From NCBI RefSeq assembly GCF_004010195.1, contig NC_057752.1, positions 7,788,835 to 7,850,834 of the forward strand: a DNA stretch of 62,000 bases. The letters run 5' to 3'. Every line of letters begins with the position of its first letter. The first letter of the stretch is position 1. A program made the position numbers and the translations under genes. The notes below the pieces were generated by a model. It saw only the letters and a program-made list of their open reading frames with translations, made no database searches and had not been told where the DNA came from. This document shows positions 39,901-49,494 of this stretch, in pieces. Origin of the DNA: Chiloscyllium plagiosum (Eukaryota).

Positions 39901-41632
39901 GCATCCTTGGAGGTTCCAACAGTGGTGGGGCATTTTACTCAGCTGTGTCTCCCTTTAAGTTATTGCTGCTAAATATTTCATCACTGAGGTGACACTTAGT
40001 TTAGCTCACATCAATGGCACAATACCTTTGACCCCAACATTTGATGGATAAGCACATTCACTCTATACGTATTGCATCTCTGTAAGCAAATGTTTGCAAA
40101 TTAAATGTGGCTGGAGTTTGCAAACTCATGCTTTATGTATTTGCCCCTTCAATGTCCTAAGGTCCAAAAAAACATGCATCCTATGCTTTCACCCATCAAA
40201 GTGGTACTGATTTTGTCCATTTTTGGACATTATCTCAGCCATTTTCCAGCTGTAGTTAGCACTCACTGAATAGTACGTGATGGCAGAGAATGCAGTTCAT
40301 GGTGGACAGTATCAGCGGTGGACGCGACCTGGATCACCAGAAAAGCCCCTGGGCCTCCATGTCTCTTTTTACCTCCGTCTAACCCGACAGCCCATTTCTA
40401 ACCATACCCCCAAATTGTGGAGCCACCACGTTGAACATTGCTTCCAGCGGTCTTTCCAACCCTCATATTATTTAAGTATTTAGATGTGCATTTGCAATGC
40501 CAAGACATACAGAGACATATAGGTTAAGTGCTGGAAAATAGGAGTAGAGTAGTTAGGTGGTTGTTTTTGATGGACCAAAAGGCCTTTTTTCTGTACAATA
40601 GATCTTTGTGACTATGACTCTATAATTCCCTACACCCTGAAATTACAACTTAATGATGCCTACCCTGATCCTCTACATCCACTGTGTGGAGGCCACTTGG
40701 TGGTCACTGCCAATAACAGCCCTCACACGCCCATAGCTTACTGTGCCCTTAATTGCTGCTCTCCATATCCCCGCCATACACCTAGAGATCCCCACTTGTC
40801 CTTGTCACTGTCCTTCTTCCCAGCTTCACTTGCACCCTCCCTTCAATCATCAACGGATGAGCTCTCAGGGCTGTATTTACCAGAGACCACCATTGACAAG
40901 CAGCCCCTTGACATGACTGACCAGACCCTTGACCACCATCTTTGCAGTTTCCCGACTGACGATACGCAATTCCCCTGGCTACTAATGCTCACCCTACAGT
41001 ATCGACCTTTATCCACTTACAGAAGAGGAGGTTCTGGAGATATTAGAGAATACGAAGGTGGATAAATCTCCAGGACCTGATCTAATGTATCTCAGAACAT
41101 TGTGGGAAGAGAGGAAATTGCGGGACTTCTTGCAGGAATATTTGCATCATCTATAACTCTGGGTGAGGTGCCTGATGTTGTATCCTTGTTTAAGAAGGGA
41201 TGTAAGGAGAAACCAGGAACTACACAACTCTGAGTCTGACTTCAGCTGTGGGGAAATTATTGGAGGTGATTTTAAGAAGTAGGATTTATGGACATTTAGA
41301 GAGACAAAAACTGATTAGGGATAGTCTGCATGGTTTCGTGCAAGGAAATCAAGTTTGTGAGACATGATTTGAGTTTTTGAAGAAGTTACCAAAAAGATTG
41401 ACGAGGGCAGAGCAGTAGACGTTTTTTTACTTGGACTTTAGCAAAGCCTTTGACAAGGTTCTGCATGGTAGACCAGCTAGTAAAGTTAGGTCACATGGGA
41501 TTCAGGGCAGGTTTGCCAATTGATACATAATTGGCTTTTCGGCAGGAAACAGAGAGTGGTGGTGGAGGGTTGGAAGCCTGTCACCAGCAGTGTTCCACAG
41601 GAACTGGTTCTGGGTCATCTTTTGTTTGTCAT

Positions 41633-42229
41633 TGTAAGGTATAGGGTTAAAATTGCACAGAATAAGGGAACAGATGTTGCTTCTGCAAAAGCTTACATTA
41701 TAAAATTAGGCTGTGCATGCCAATAAACAGTGAGAAGTGAAAACAAGTAGAATTATCTATGACTAATAGGGCAGAGCAACCGTGTAGCGGGATGTACCAG
41801 TAACAGGAGAATAGTGTGCCAGTCGCAGGAAGGATGTGGCCAACGGATGGAATTTAGTTTGGCAGGATGATCGCACAACGACAGCAAACTATGCCAGGAT
41901 AGTCACTTATAAGGAATGAGGTAAATAAGAGTAAGGGGCGACAGGCTTAGAATAATGGGAGAAGTAAACAGAGGCGGAGAGAAACTAGACAAAGGTGGAG
42001 TGAAGCTAGAGCTTGTGATTGGTTACTTTTGCTGTCGTGCATAGCCTATGGGATGAAAGGGGGGAGGACCGAGAGACGCAGCTGAACTGCATAAATCAGA
42101 ATGTAACCCTCAGATCGGGGTGCTTACTCATTAGGCACCCATTCTTACAAGTTCGTATCAATAAAATTCGATGCTTCAGAATTTGACTCGGACTGAAATT
42201 TATTAATATGTGGAGTTTTGTTTCTCACA
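41633..42229 (+). repeat. ERV 5' LTR
   Basis: TGTAAGG...TCTCACA, AATAAA at 42160-42165, direct repeat of 48273-49148. Confidence 0.95.
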
Positions 42230-42232
42230 ATT

Positions 42233-42250
42233 TGGGGGCTCGTCCAGGAT
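42233..42250 (+). promoter_or_regulatory. Primer binding site, tRNA-Pro
   Basis: TGGGGGCTCGTCCAGGAT, one mismatch to the MLV-type PBS-Pro TGGGGGCTCGTCCGGGAT. Confidence 0.93.
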
Positions 42251-42533
42251 GTCCATCATCACCAGTGGGGTAGGCACAGTCGATGGCTGGGAAGACGCGT
42301 CCCGTTCCTTTTAGAACGGTCCTGTGTTCCTCGGTTGTGGGTTTCCCTTTCTGGTTGACTGATTGAGATCCGATGAGAGTCTCTATCTGAACCAGGCAAA
42401 AGATTGTAAGTGGGCACAGGGAGCCAGGCAACTCCGTGCATGGACCAAGGTAGGAAAAGAGATTTTTAAGTACTGCCTTGGTGGCTGGGATTGAGTTCTC
42501 GTAGTTAATAAGTGTCTAACGAAGGAACTCAAT

Positions 42534-43289
42534 ATGGGCTGTGCCGAGGGTAAAGTAAAAGCCTCCGGGAAACAAAAAATGGAAATGGACAACATACCTC
42601 CATAAAGTCCGTTGGGCAGGATGTTGTGGAATTGGAAAAATAATACTTGTACAAGGGAAAAAGATAGCAAAAAGATGATTAAATATTGTTGCTTTGTATG
42701 GACTAAGGAATCCATTCTTCGTCCCGCCGTCTTCTGGCCAAGGTATGGGTTGGACGAAGACTGTGTTTGTAAATATTTGAATTTATATGTCAACAGAAAA
42801 CAGCCTTTCAGTCAGGAGGGATCAGATTATGCTTAGTGTTAGAAGGTATAGTAGCTGAAGGGCTACTGAGGATACACTTTGTAACTAAATCACGGCCAGA
42901 CATCCAGAAAAAAAAAATCAGAAAATAGATGGGTGGAGTGAGAAATCACTTGAGGAATTATTAAGAGAGGCACAGAAAGAGTTTGTAAAGAGAGAGGATG
43001 AGAAGCAAAAACAGAAGGTGAAAATGATGGTAGCCACGGTTGACAAAGTAGTCAAGAAAAGAATCGAACCGGTGACTAGCAGCCGGAGTGGAGGGTGGCA
43101 GCACATAGAACATAGTCGAAGGGGTAGAGGACAAGGAGGATCTTTCGTAGGGTCCAGTCGACAGGGACAAGGACAGAGGTAGAGACCCCAACAAGCAGGG
43201 TGTTGCAGAAAAACAAAATTTCAAAAGATAGAGGGGTGGAGCGAGAAGCCTCTAGAGTTGTTGCGGGAAGCTCAAAAAGTGTCTGAGAT

Positions 43290-43290
<1 letters not shown>
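42534..43290 (+). pseudogene. gag: ERV gag remnant: matrix fused to capsid C-terminus
   Basis: MGCAEGK...SPLGRML...KMIKYCCFVW...FWPRYG, then FVTKSRPDI..KIDGWSEKSLEELLREAQK. Stops and a large deletion. Confidence 0.88.
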
Positions 43291-43295
<5 letters not shown>

Positions 43296-43336
<41 letters not shown>

Positions 43337-43348
43337 GAGTGAGAGAGA
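43296..43348 (+). repeat. (GA)n microsatellite at the gag/insert junction
   Basis: Direct reading. Confidence 0.95.
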
Positions 43349-44104
43349 AAAAAAGAGCTGTACAGCTAATAGAAAGTTTAACCTTTTGTGATTCGGTTTG
43401 AATGCACATTAGTTTGTTGGTGATTGAATGTTTGTGCTTTGTTCCCTGGAGCTTGAGATCCGGGACTATTTTGAATCCGATTTCTATTATGGAAATTTAA
43501 CATGATTTCTTTTAAGGTTAAGGATTTTACAGTGATTATGAAATAAAATGTTAACTCATGTTCTTTTCACAGGTCATGACTGCCTTACTATCAGTTTCTA
43601 ACTAATCTCTTTTATCCTTACATAAAAGCGATTTCAAACCAGCTTAATACGGAGGAAAACAACATGATAACCTTTTTTAGTGTTTCAGACTCATTTGTTT
43701 TCACTTAATTTTAAGCTGGAACTTTATTCAGAAAGTTCCCTCCCTCAATGACGGTTGAAATTTCAGTTCAACATTAGATTGTAATAAATCAATCCTATGG
43801 TTAATATCTGTGACCTTGGATTCGGCCATTATTCATACATTGAAAGTTTTTTTTTAAAAACTTGAATAGACAAATCCTTTTAAGACAGCTCTGGTTATTC
43901 CACGACCTTTTTCATTGTAATTGAGCAATGACTGGTCAGGACAACTGAAGAAAACTAATTTTGGATTTAAATTAAGGGACTAAAACCGGGTAATAATAGT
44001 GGATTTCAAAGTTGGGAACTGTATGCATTTTACATTTTAAATATTAAATACTCAATAAATGAATTTATAATATATAAATATATATTTACAAGTAAGATTC
44101 CAAA

Positions 44105-44599
44105 ATGTATAGTTAGGAACAGGCTTTAAAGTTAGACAAGCATAAATTGATATTTGAAGCGATAGGGAGCAAGAAATATTGCAATATTTCTTAAAAAAAA
44201 AATCAAGGTTTAAACAAAACATTGGGTGATGAAGAATGGTCATTAGGTGGCCCCAAAGCTGTTCAATTGGTTAAATCGGCTCAGCAATTGATCCGGCAAT
44301 GTAACATGGGAGCGGGAACGAAAGAGTTAATTGGACTATGGCGACAGTTTTGTGATGAGAGGCACGAAGAATCAGTTTTGCGCTCATGACAAGATACTGT
44401 CACCAAATTGGGGATTGAATTAACTGCAAATGGTGCTATGGAATCTGTTGAGGTTTTTAAAAATGAATGTGCTCGAGCAAAACAATTACAGAAACAGAAT
44501 GAGAAGCCAGAAGTGACTGGTAAACAAACAGAACTGCTCAATTACAGTTTTCAAAATGTTTTAGTCATTTGTTGCGTTTCTGTCCTGAATTACAGATAA
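44105..44599 (+). pseudogene. Extra decayed ORF inside the ERV, resembling a matrix domain of a different ERV lineage
   Basis: One frame from ATG 44105 with stops at 44114, 44192 and 44387: KYCNIS*KKNQGLNKTLGDEEWSLGGPKAVQLVKSAQQLIRQCNMGAGTKELIGLWRQFCDERHEESVLRS*QD... Confidence 0.5.
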
Positions 44600-44789
44600 T
44601 GATTATTTTCTTTATATAATATATAATTAATAATTAATATTTATAATAAATCAATTGTATTAGCCTGGCTCAATATTGATTGGCAGGATTCCTTCACACT
44701 TTCTCAGTGACCTATCATATTGATTCATAGCTAATTTAAAACATGACAGCATTAATTCATTGTTAATTAGAAAATGGAAAGCTACATTA

Positions 44790-46279
44790 CTGGCCAGAGT
44801 GTGTGCAGGCAGTGGCAGCAACAGCCTTATTGGTAGAGGAGAGTCGGAAACTTACTTTTGGGGGAGCCTTAATAGTCATCACCCCACATCAGGTATGGAC
44901 CATATTAAATCAGAAAGCAGGGAGGTGGCTTACAGACTCTAGAATTCTAAAATATGAAGTAATTCTAATAGAGAGGGATGACCTTACATTTGTCTGAATC
45001 GAGCTACCTTTCTCTGGAAAGGGGAGGATGAAGCTCCCTCAGACCCAGAACATGACTGCCTCGACATTATAGAATATCAGACTAAAGTAAGAATGGACCT
45101 TAGAGATATCCCTCTATATGCATGGGTCCTCCAGAGTGATTGAAGGTAAAAGTTAGAATGGATATGCAGTAGTGGATGGAATAGAGGGGAGTGTTATTGA
45201 GGCTAGTTGACTACCCAATGATTGATCAGCACAGACTTGCGAACGTTATGCACTAGGAAGGGCCCTCAAGACCTTGGAGGGCAAAGAAGGAACTGTATAC
45301 ACAGAGTCGAAGAATGCCTTCGGGGTGGCACGCATATTTGGGAAGATATGGCAGGAGAGGGGACTGATAAACAGTAAGGGTAAAGAACCTGGGCTCCGAC
45401 CATTTCAGAGCATTCAGGTAGATTATACCGAATTACCCAGAGTGGGAAGAATGAGGTATATGCTGGTAATAGTTGATCACCTATCTGGATGGGTGGAGGC
45501 GTACCCTTTAGCCACTGCCACTGCAGGGTGGAGGCGTACCCTTTAGCCACTGCCACTGCAAGTGGCGTGTCCAAGATAATACTTGAACACTTAATCCCCA
45601 GATACGGGATAGTGGAATGTATAGATTCGGATCTGGGAACTCATTTTACTTCCAGGGTACTCCAGGGAGTGATGAAGGGGCTAGGAGTCTCCTGGGAGTT
45701 CCACACCCCTTGGCACCCACCTTCATCAGGAAAAGTTGAGAGAATGAACCAGACACTCAAGATGCAGTTATCTAAATTAATAGTAGAAACAAGACTCCCT
45801 TGAACTAAGTGTTTACCAAAGCCCTTTTGCAAGTGTGAATGGTCCCAAGGAAAGATATGGGGCTGTCCCCTTAGGGGATATTGTTTGGCCTACCCTATCT
45901 GGGAACAAAAGGGGAACTGCCAACCCTGGAGACTAAAGAACTGTTCTTAAAGAAGTATATATTGGGCTTGTCCTCCTCTTTGTCTTTTCTTAGGAGACAA
46001 GGATTACTGGCACAGACTCTGCCCCTTGAATTCGCCGTTCATCCCATCCAGCCAGGAGATTGAGTCCTAATTAAATCATGGACAGAAACTAAATTGCAGC
46101 CGGACTGGGAGGGACCATACCAGGCTCTTTTAACTACTGAAATGGCAATACGCACGGCGGAGAAAGGCTGGACTCACTACACCAGGATTAAAGGACCAGT
46201 GGAATCCCCAGTTAAGAAAGAAGTCTGGACAGCCGAATCAACGGAAGAACCACTGAAACTCAGACTCAAAAGACTTTAA
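44790..46279 (+). pseudogene. pol: ERV pol remnant: connection, partial RNase H, integrase
   Basis: VAATALLVEESRKLT, WLTDSRILKYE, QVDYTELP, IDSDLGTHFT, SSGKVERMN, WEGPY. Protease and RT core are absent. Confidence 0.92.
45491..45560 (+). repeat. Perfect 35-bp tandem duplication in integrase
   Basis: gggtggaggcgtaccctttagccactgccactgca twice, causing a frameshift. Confidence 0.95.
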
Positions 46280-46375
46280 GTAACTGATTTTTATGCGGAC
46301 GCAGGATAGCTTCCTTTTGATACCTATATATTGTATTGCATGTTAAATCTCTCGGTCCTTCAATACTATTGTAGG

Positions 46376-48208
46376 ATGCTGGGGATGCTTAGGGTTACCA
46401 TATTAGCTTTCTTAGTATTGGGATTTTGTCAAACGATGTTGTCATCCCCATATTTGTTATTAATGGTCCCAGAGTCTGAATAGCCGCAAGTAATAGAGGT
46501 TGATGCTTGCAGCCTAATAAAATGCGCAGATGTAAAGTATCAGAGGGAGTATATTTCCTCCAAAATCCTTCTTAAGACCCGACCGGACACAAGGTGTGGT
46601 TCGCAAAAACCATCACCTGGCATCACTATCCATAGAGCCCCCTTTCGCCCAGCCAGAGGCTGTCCTAACAGAAAGTGCCACCCGATATATCTCACCATTA
46701 AAAATCCCTCCTCTGAAGACTCCTTTCCCCGTAAAAACGGGTCTCGACTCCTTACTAACGATTTAAAGATAGTAATGGAAGCCACTGGAGAGTGTTTTTC
46801 TGGCTGCTGTTTCTGAATAGCCGTAGGAAATGGAAAACGAGCCAAACAACTTGATAGTAAGATTAATCAACCTTTTGCCCCTCCCAACGACCCAAAGGTG
46901 GTAAAAATTATAGAGGTGAAGGACTTGAAGCAGACCATTGAAATAGAAACTGGATACGGGGACGCAAATGCCTGGGTTGAATGGGTAAAGTACACTGTTA
47001 AAACTCTGAATAAAAGCAATTAGTATGCATGTGCCTCCGGTAGACCAGTTGCCCACATAGTCCCCTTTCCACTCGGGTGGAACCGAAACAGGAAGGGCAT
47101 GGAATGTATGATAGCCCTGTCTCAGGATAAGACTGCATGGAATGAAAGGAATTGTACATGCCTATCTCTAACGCTCCCTCCCTTGGAGAAGACAGATTTG
47201 AAAGCACGGTCGGGAATCATATTGTGTACAAGCCGACAGGGTACAAATTGATCTAGAGACTTGGGGGAGCTAAGGTTAAACTCAGAATGACACCGAAACA
47301 AAGGAGGGAACTACTCAGCACTCAGGGTTCCCCGGGCGGATCTCTGGTGGTACTGTGGAGGCAGAATATTGCGACCTACCCTACCTCCTGACTGGAGAGG
47401 GATATGTGCAATTGGCAATCCCATTCACCTCGGCATTTGAGAAGGAGAAGGTGGTAGTAACAAAGAATGAGAGGAGTAAAAGGTTGTTATTAGATACTTC
47501 CTTTGATGATAGGATTTATCTCAACGCTATAGGAGTTCTTAGAGGGGTCCCCGATGAGTTCAAGGCCCGCAATCAGATTGCAGCAGGTTTTGAATCGGCC
47601 CTATTTTGGTGGGTAGCGGTCAACCAGAATGTGGATTGGATAAACTATTTTCTTTTTACAATCAAAGATTCATCAATTACACTAGAGATGCAGTCAAGGG
47701 TATTTCCAAGCAACTTGATGCAACCAGCAGAATGGCCTGGGAAAACAGACTGGCCTTAGATATGATCCTAACTGAAAAAGGGTGTGTATGTGTGCTGTTA
47801 GGAGGGAGCTGTTGTACCTTTATTCCAAATAATACAGCATCTGATTGGTCAATCTCTCATGCCTTGCGAGGATTGACCATCTTGGCAGAAGAATTGGCTG
47901 AGAATTCAGGAGTGGACACATCACTCACGAGATGGCTGGAATCATGGTTTGGGAAATGGAAGGGAGTGGTAGTCTCCATCCTCACCTCCCTGATAGTGGT
48001 AGCAGGGGTACAGACAGCAATTGGCTGTTGTATCATACCTTGTGTACGAGGGTTAACCCAGTGGCTAATTGAGAAGGCCTTGGCAAAACAAATACCTCTA
48101 AAAGATAATCAGGCAGAGGAACACAACCTCTTGAACAATGAGGGGGTGGGTGACCTTAAGGAATTAGCCACTATAAATGAATTCTCAGGGATGATGCTAG
48201 CGAACTGA
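46376..48208 (+). pseudogene. env: ERV env remnant, gamma-type
   Basis: Furin site RSKR, ISD-like WENRLALDMIL, CX6CC (CVLLGGSCC), TM segment VVVSILTSLIVVAG. SU is frameshifted; start coordinate approximate. Confidence 0.92.
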
Positions 48209-48252
48209 AAGGCAACGTATGAGATAAATGCAGAAGACAACACTTAGTAGCC

Positions 48253-48270
48253 AAGAAGAAACGGGGGGGA
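48253..48270 (+). promoter_or_regulatory. Polypurine tract
   Basis: aagaagaaacggggggga immediately before the 3' LTR. Confidence 0.85.
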
Positions 48271-48272
48271 AT

Positions 48273-49148
48273 TGTAAGGTATAGGGTTAAAATTGTGCAG
48301 AATAAGGGAACAGGTGTTGCTTCTGCAAAAGCTGAAAAATGTGTTGCTGGAAAAGCGCAGCAGGTCAGGCAGCATCCAATGCAGGTCAAGAAGGCGGTGC
48401 TGAGTCCGAGGGTTGGGACTGAGAAAAGGTGGGGGGCGGGGAAATGAGGAAGCTGGAGAAATCTGCATTCATCCCTTGTGGTTGGAGGGTTCCTAGGCGG
48501 AAGATGAGGCGCTCTTCCTCCAGGTGTTGTGTTGCTGGCTGCCTGACCTGCTGCGCTTTTCCAGCAACACATTTTTCAGCTGATCTCCAGCATCTGCAGT
48601 CCTCACTTTCTCCTTCTGCAAAAGCTTACATTATAAAATTAGGCTGTGCATGCCAATACTAAACAGTGAGAAGTGAAAACAGGTAGAATTATCTAGGGTA
48701 GAGCAACCGTGTAGCAGGATGTACCTGTAACAGGAGAATAGTGTGCCAGTCGCAGGAAGGATGTGGCCAACGGATGGAATTTAGTTTGGCAGGATGATCA
48801 CACGAAGACAGCAAACTATGCCAGGATAGTCATATATAGGGAATGAGATAAATAAGATTAAGGGGCGACAGGCTTAGAGTAATGGGAAAAGTAAACAGAG
48901 GCGGAGAGAAACTAGACAAAGGTGGAGTGAAGCTAGAGCTTGTAATTGGTTACTTTTGCTGTAGCGCATAGCCTATGGGATGAAAGAGGAGGACCAAGAG
49001 ACGCAGCTGAACTGCATAAATCAGAATGTAACTCTCAAATCGGGGTGCTTACTCCTTAGGCACCCGTTCTTGCAATATCAATAAAATTCGCTGCTTCAGA
49101 ATTTGACTTGGACTGAAATTTATTAATATGTGAGTTTTGTTTCTCACA
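48273..49148 (+). repeat. ERV 3' LTR containing a Penelope insertion
   Basis: Matches the 5' LTR once 48334-48626 is removed. Confidence 0.95.
48334..48612. mobile_element. Short fold-back Penelope insertion in the 3' LTR
   Basis: Inverted gaaaaatgtgttgctggaaaagcgcagcaggtcaggcagc arms. 14-bp TSD cttctgcaaaagct at 48320-48333 and 48613-48626. Confidence 0.9.
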
Positions 49149-49494
49149 TCATTTATATAAATGACTTAGATAAGACACTGTTAGTATGTTTGCGGATGAC
49201 ACCAAAATTGGTGGCATAGAAAACCTTTTTCAATGTCAACTAAGAGTACAAAGGGATCTTGATCAAATGGGTCAATGGGCTGAAAAAATGGCAGAGGAAG
49301 TGCAATCTGAATAAATGTGAGGTATTGCATTTTGGTGCAACAAACGGGCAGGTTTTGTACAATTAATGGTAGGGCCTTGGGTAGTGTTGTAGAAGAGGGA
49401 GTGAGGGGTTCAGGTACATAATTCTTTGAAGTTTGCATTACATGTAGACAAGGTGGTTAAAAAGGCATTTAGTATGCTTGCCTTCACTGCTCAG

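Follow-up and report, generated by a model that had tools for sequence, protein, structure and literature searches.

The window, i.e. the whole 62,000-nucleotide stretch of Chiloscyllium plagiosum DNA that was analyzed, contains a provirus of an endogenous retrovirus (ERV) family, here termed family A, which spans 41633-49148 and is flanked by a 4-bp target site duplication (TSD), TCAT. Remnants of gag, pol and env lie between two long terminal repeats (LTRs), with a foreign segment, termed the cargo, placed between gag and pol (Table 1). The primer-binding site is presumably tRNA-Pro-like. Divergence of the LTR pair was K2P 0.051 over 595 columns. The TLV_coat match in the env remnant (47594-48205; E 1.5e-4) is under the curated Pfam cut-off. 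The protease-reverse transcriptase (RT) piece of family-A parents matched MLV RT with an E of 1e-49, the closest among solved structures, and foamy virus RT with 1e-23. On this RT match to MLV, the backbone is assigned to the class I (gamma-like) ERVs.

Several secondary features were also observed. The integrase remnant is shifted in frame at 45490-45565 by a 38-bp tandem duplication. The insertion in the 3' LTR (48334-48612, 279 bp) is a short repeat with a partly inverted pair and matches a high-copy SINE-like sequence of many loci. Judged by eye, the surroundings (41000-41632 and 49149-49490) are a LINE-like RT remnant, presumably CR1-like, that hosts the provirus.

Table 1. Features of the family-A provirus and its cargo, in window coordinates
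Feature	Coordinates	Strand	Remarks
5' LTR, family A	41633..42229	+	TSD TCAT at 41629-41632; RNA starts near 42117
Primer-binding site	42233..42250	+	Directly after the 5' LTR
Family-A gag matrix remnant, stop-containing	42534..42833	+	No BLASTP similarity to the cargo's matrix homologue
Family-A gag capsid tail past an internal deletion, then a short duplicate of the tail	42889..43282	+	
Cargo segment 1: (GT/GA)n microsatellite and AT-rich internal segment of non-autonomous B elements	43283..44091	+	75-94% identity to B copies
Splice-acceptor-like motif, inherited from family B	43551..43572	+	Candidate site, from sequence only
Cargo segment 2: B internal sequence resuming past a ~510-570 bp deletion	44089..44152	+	
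Family-B gag leader piece (as in L023)	44148..44199	+	86% identity
Family-B Gag matrix fragment, ~residues 35-148	44205..44543	+	Without start codon; stop at 44387
Cargo segment 3: return to B internal sequence ~95 bp beyond segment 2	44543..44797	+	Ends in microhomology
Family-A pol remnant: RT connection, RNase H, integrase with deletion	44791..46280	+	
Family-A env remnant	46360..48208	+	Start approximate; TLV_coat match
3' LTR with repeat insertion at ~48334-48612	48273..49148	+	TSD TCAT at 49149-49152

Composition and donor of the cargo

The cargo comprises ~1.5 kb (about 43283-44797). The GC content of 43350-44790 is 0.34-0.38, versus 0.42-0.47 in the remaining provirus, and no LTR or TSD of its own, nor any match to the family-B LTR introduced below, was reported inside this interval. 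Sixteen family-A relatives without the cargo were found via the pol remnant; protease-RT sequence occupies the cargo's place in 14 of them and runs of N in the other two. Judged from five parents, ~1.6-1.9 kb of parental sequence is missing from the hybrid. On the evidence of these alignments, the cargo stands in for nucleocapsid, protease and most of the RT of family A. The preliminary description of a 1.4-kb AT-rich, non-pol cargo in place of protease and RT, without LTR or TSD, is confirmed by these comparisons.

The peptide read from the cargo matched the N-terminus of a shark Gag-like protein (P0003 of Scyliorhinus torazame, starting MGN) with an E of 7e-16 in phmmer/HMMER, one of four homologues that a full HMMER search returned outside this genome. 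A word-indexed search for longer homologues, itself weak evidence, found none among 136 candidates, and a search with homologue P0003 yielded 124 matches, the best at 53% identity and none full length. Residues 1-140 of P0003 fell nearest to Gag matrix clusters in a language-model search (score 0.93, 166 shared features), which was treated as a lead. Pfam contained no family for the peptide or its homologues, and the predicted structure was helical with low confidence (pLDDT 53) and had no Foldseek match at E 0.001.

Within the genome, all 20 matrix-only matches that were fetched (first ~114 residues) align solely to 44205-44543. These loci belong to a second ERV family, B, whose LTR differs from that of A, and the DNA of the cargo peptide is 85-93% identical to the gag matrix of the closer family-B proviruses. 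With the shark Gag match, this identity speaks against a frame that arose by chance. At locus L021 a homologue of the peptide starts a gag, behind which come capsid-like sequence, protease, RT, RNase H and integrase; the Pfam matches at this locus are all under curated cut-offs, and those to capsid are weak. Pol sequence beyond protease occurs within 10 kb at 6 of the 20 matrix-only loci, and family-B pol is 34-44% identical to that of family A. These alignments identify the peptide as Gag matrix of family B, related to the N-terminal domain of a Gag behind which CA, NC and pol are encoded. Its earlier likening to the matrix of a different ERV lineage, distinct from the provirus's own, was correct: the family-A matrix has no BLASTP similarity to the cargo's matrix homologue. 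The possibility that the peptide lacks gag or other homologues is likewise removed by the gag matches. A search for a non-proviral donor locus, also proposed earlier, found none among the best candidates scored. The matrix donors examined were all ERV-like, and sequence similarity places the matrix donor in a provirus of the same genome and not in a host gene. Identity between the cargo and its nearest B copies is 90-94%, about the same as among the cargo copies themselves, which suggests capture shortly before the spread of the hybrid.

In non-autonomous family-B elements the order of parts is matrix, capsid, (GT/GA)n run, AT-rich segment and env, with the AT-rich segments 0.8-3 kb 3' of the matrix at seven loci (L022, L027, L028, L031, L033 and, in part, L036 and L039). 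The cargo order differs, consisting of an AT-rich part, ~50 bp of gag leader, a truncated matrix and an AT-rich part again; given the downstream position of the AT-rich segments in B copies, the cargo order is scrambled. After the leader piece ~150 bp were lost, the gag start included, and the matrix fragment has neither a start codon nor an N-terminal glycine for myristoylation, ~34 codons being absent. All pieces of the mosaic are in sense orientation. At the pol junction a word of 5-7 nt is common to the window, the family-A parents and B; this is the only clear microhomology aligned in all three partners, the other junctions being approximate. The stretch 43363-43543 is also similar to the gag leader of L026, a pol-bearing B-lineage provirus (score 102 vs at most 61 in 20 shuffles), a match found in 1 of 16 tested leaders.

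An origin of the AT-rich part as host RNA, i.e. an intron or untranslated region captured by family B, which would make the cargo partly a transduced host sequence, is unlikely. Such an origin would fit its AT-richness, its acceptor-like and poly(A)-signal-like words, its absence from the fetched stretches of pol-bearing B proviruses (the L026 leader match excepted) and the lack of protein homologues of the short B frame that follows it (0 at E 0.1 among 30 candidates). However, all carriers examined hold B-type internal sequence (L061-L072 by junction-side segments; 20/20 of L093-L112), the 5' end matches a viral leader, and no single-copy host locus appeared among the best 40-150 candidates scored. 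Apart from L026, the carriers examined are all non-autonomous B or A elements. The short frame itself was also considered as a third Gag start, with no homologue among the same 30 candidates. It has 69 genomic matches, and the 20 fetched were all B-type non-autonomous elements.

Distribution of the hybrid in the genome

The cargo is shared by a whole family of proviruses. Of 1427 first-look candidates from a genome-wide DNA search, the best 40 were scored, and the 20 top matches that were fetched (subfamily A1, the window plus 19 others) all carry the cargo in the same proviral context at 88-94% identity; this set is skewed toward copies most similar to the window. In a protein search the best 150 of 952 candidates were scored, and by hand count ~87 of them have their start at residue 35-45. 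All ten sampled matches of this kind represent a variant, subfamily A2, in which the same provirus and cargo are broken at 44305-44311. The A2 inserts within the matrix fragment are 397-668 nt long, none of the six measurable ones being a multiple of three, and contain a family-A-type gag end, a zinc knuckle and the start of protease. Most sampled A2 copies also carry a deletion of 43634-43750. A third form, L073 (2501-6248), holds the AT-rich part within gag together with an RT piece and has no B matrix fragment; without matrix coverage, it was excluded from the dN/dS and stop counts below.

Six junctions of the mosaic are each crossed by 15-19 of the 19 other A1 copies and 7-11 of the 11 A2 copies, compared with 0/51 B loci and 0/16 family-A parent loci. 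The window (L001) is counted among the 20 A1 copies but left out of the junction-crossing count, as is L061, which duplicates L022. A tree of 37 natural copies groups all 31 that carry the cargo into a single clade among the B copies (UFBoot 98). Cargo copies are spread over many contigs, and flanks differ in copies whose locus reaches the LTR edge. The element is an amplified non-autonomous A/B recombinant ERV that multiplied after recombination.

A local accident at a single locus, whether secondary insertion, gene conversion or assembly misjoin, has practically no probability left. The long GA run at the 5' edge of the cargo would invite such a reading, and a misjoin at this run had been named as a concern. 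Yet the junction there is crossed by 15 of the 19 other A1 and 7 of the 11 A2 copies, and B copies carry the same microsatellite at this point. Furthermore, the same junctions recur in most of the 30 other copies on many contigs, flanks differ where the locus reaches the LTR edge, no TSD surrounds the cargo, and parental sequence was replaced, not pushed apart.

Coding potential, splice signals and RNA

The reading frame first proposed for the cargo (44105-44599) is upheld in part. Its downstream portion, 44195-44596, has a single stop, at 44387, whereas the frame from the ATG at 44105 ends after three codons (stops at 44114 and 44192). Stop 44387 is present in 9/20 A1 and 11/11 A2 copies (20/31 in total) and also in five B copies, hence it is partly a hotspot; its fixation in A2 means that this subfamily multiplied when its frame was already dead. 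Another stop, at 44243, occurs in 4/20 A1 copies, three of them in one clade. Over 109 codons the fragment is unbroken by stop or frameshift in 3/20 A1 copies and in none of the 11 A2 copies. All 31 copies have 6-12 ATGs and 7-22 in-frame stops between the acceptor-like site and the fragment, and just one has an in-frame ATG directly 5' of the fragment.

Raw Nei-Gojobori dN/dS among A1 copies was 0.46 (0.30-0.77). With CpG columns removed, rates weighted from non-coding cargo and stops counted as changes, the corrected value was 0.98 (0.56-1.88), an interval that still allows 0.6, and comparison values were 1.06 for non-coding cargo and 0.82-0.99 for dead family-A gag and pol pieces. After these controls, the raw value below 1 was rejected as a signal of selection and attributed to a CpG/transition artefact. 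Pairwise values on a near-star tree mostly reflect decay after insertion, not selection during spread. Diversity of the fragment was 0.065, versus 0.052 and 0.073 in the flanking non-coding parts. An open frame with dN/dS below 1 across other copies, which the preliminary description had put forward as a check, was not found, with 3/31 copies unbroken and the corrected ratio near unity.

The acceptor noted earlier is present, its AG lying at 43571-43572, one base from the position first given. Three acceptor-like sites of equal strength occur in the cargo versus a mean of 1.04 in 300 shuffles (P(>=1) 0.64, P(>=3) 0.09), and 1.7-2.0 per kb occur across the window; an acceptor-like site of such strength is common. 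Most family-B copies spanning the site show it almost unaltered, and the conservation of its 25-bp bin (0.79) is no better than that of its neighbours (0.73-0.92). The possible donor is also real as a motif, but its GT at 44520 is conserved family-B gag coding sequence. The splice-like signals came along from B, and nothing supports their use for expression of the fragment.

Four sequencing runs were aligned to 41620-44050, the part of the provirus 5' of the matrix fragment. None of the listed runs with the sequence is recorded as RNA, which bears on expression in neither direction. Raw reads came only from X17, a poly(A) single-cell, 3'-biased run; X18 yielded no reads, and X1 and X2 are contigs of guessed type. 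X17 contributed 811 reads, mostly less than 95% alike, suggesting that they derive from other copies or a related species. The reads are in sense orientation and start near 42117 in the LTR, 84 of them with a loose end before this position that is presumably adaptor. Reads pile up on 43342-43548, 5' of the acceptor-like site, and 231 end in A runs at 43542-43548. These ends coincide with an AATAAA-like word, and the X1 and X2 contigs show A-run variants there, so that a true poly(A) site and internal oligo-dT priming are equally likely. Among the 811 X17 reads no joint enters the acceptor, a weak test given the 3'-biased library and the origin in other copies, and 8-10 reads run across it unspliced. 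Joints at 43634>43750 and 42912>43220 were rejected as splices since they match DNA deletions in A2 copies.

Two further observations concern the same library. A junction at 42793 that matches L073 was seen in 38 X17 reads. In addition, 69 X17 reads depart from the LTR at 42150 and continue in a foreign sequence that is the same in all of them, and some copy of the family-A LTR may drive a chimeric host transcript.

It is highly improbable that the fragment is expressed as an accessory or interference protein from RNA in which the leader is spliced to 43573 or to an acceptor closer by. In favour of this, the peptide is a true Gag matrix homologue, nearly every copy has the acceptor-like motif, transcription of the LTR was seen in a related sample, and the raw dN/dS and the three open A1 copies would agree with a working frame. 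Against these points stand the missing start codon and myristoylation glycine, the ATGs and stops that follow the acceptor in every copy, stops at 44387 and 44243 inherited during spread, the A2 insertion that splits the fragment, the corrected dN/dS, and the reads, which offer no joint into the acceptor (weakly, for the reasons given above). Fv1 and enJSRV Gag are Gag-derived interference factors expressed from translatable frames. The shark fragment resembles them in being Gag-derived and in principle able to disturb another retrovirus, but differs in having no start and no capsid and in being broken in 28/31 copies. Most likely, the matrix fragment is carried along as a non-coding passenger and does not represent a new viral gene. 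The chimeric retrovirus with a captured gag piece that was hypothesized earlier is borne out as an A/B hybrid; the accessory or interference gene attached to that hypothesis is not, the fragment lacking a start, carrying shared stops and evolving neutrally among copies.

Formation of the hybrid and comparison with known mosaics

Taken together, the provirus is very probably a dead copy of an amplified A/B hybrid, likely produced by template switching, whose matrix fragment is most likely a passenger. Family-A and family-B RNAs would have been co-packaged in one particle, where RT would have jumped at short microhomologies from A pol to B internal sequence, B gag matrix, B leader, B internal sequence again and finally A gag. 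The hybrid could then have been copied in trans by RT-bearing family-A helpers, such as are present in the genome.

Retention of the AT-rich, leader-like 5' part for a role in cis (packaging, dimerisation, splicing or RNA export) that would aid copying of the hybrid RNA, perhaps in B particles too, is quite unlikely. Retroviral packaging signals usually lie in the gag leader, and 43363-43543 resembles a B-lineage gag leader. Moreover, 43333-43634 is kept in A1, in 9/10 sampled A2 loci and in the matrix-less, RT-bearing L073; the block also rides in non-autonomous B elements, for a B-specific part of which 88 first-look candidates were counted, and sense RNA of related copies covers 43342-43548. 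Simple descent fits this retention, however, and along the segment identity to B copies stays level, without any protected island. Only 1 of 16 tested B leaders matched, the hybrid keeps its own A leader, and the RNA pile ends in A runs that perhaps reflect internal oligo-dT priming. There is a similarly slim chance that a foreign leader-like B element let the hybrid ride in particles of two distant retrovirus families. Such packaging would account for survival of the 5' AT-rich block in every amplified variant seen, unlike the matrix fragment, and even for its move back into an RT-bearing family-A backbone.

The same route has been proposed for other mosaics (PMC4724089; PMC6112702). Harlequin and other mosaic human ERVs have been attributed to co-packaging and polymerase jumps, as outlined in Vargiu et al. 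(2016, PMC4724089). As described there, Harlequin likewise is a mosaic of several ERV groups inside one LTR pair, with defective gag and pol and an env remnant, that multiplied after recombination. Its donors, in that account, are fellow class I groups (PMC4724089). In the present hybrid, by contrast, the pol of the donor family shares just 34-44% identity with that of family A, the donated piece was itself rearranged, and the element resides in a cartilaginous fish. The recKoRV elements (koala retrovirus x PhER) offer a second parallel, in that the middle of a gamma-type provirus was replaced by a dissimilar, degraded retroelement, with microhomologies at some breakpoints, TSDs, high copy number and remobilisation of the donor, according to the accounts drawn on here (Lober et al. 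2018, PMC6112702; PMC10536682). By the first of these accounts recKoRV is recent and arose many times (PMC6112702), whereas the shark hybrid is old (LTR pair 5% apart), shows one capture in the sample, and keeps RNase H, integrase and env remnants along with a recognisable foreign gag fragment. Crocodilian ERVs with captured host genes similarly have foreign cargo replacing viral genes in an amplified ERV, as sketched in PMC4299795, but here the identifiable cargo is retroviral gag and not host mRNA, and has no intact frame. No publication on this element was found in a literature search that had most subscription journals and repeat databases beyond its reach.

The hybrid is a readable fossil of recombination, in a cartilaginous fish, between two retrovirus families whose pol is only about 35-45% identical, and donor, recipient and at least three hybrid variants are all still readable in the genome. 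It extends to sharks the pattern of Harlequin and recKoRV, in which a more active element is disabled and used as a vehicle by an older one; no new viral gene is demonstrated by it.

Additional features were observed in family-B elements. Between protease and RT of L021 (4289-4837, minus strand) is a stretch with two HIT motifs, 2H phosphoesterase-like, for which no Pfam match was obtained. According to PMC9503650, domains of the 2H phosphoesterase type are present in fish retroviruses, walleye dermal sarcoma virus among them, and the stretch would point to an epsilon-like family B. Tandem-repeat arrays lie directly 5' of several B copies (L025:7036-10000, L033:1-1862 and L040:8300-9527). At L034:9222-10000 a downstream B LTR is followed by a second primer site and leader, which suggests tandem proviruses sharing an LTR. 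Finally, the family-A LTR, whole or as its 3' end, is present in the leader of three B elements (L034:1817-2415, L033:2304-2419 and L040:7586-7697), apparently at one site, suggesting that a B subfamily spread with an A LTR and that traffic between the two families went both ways.
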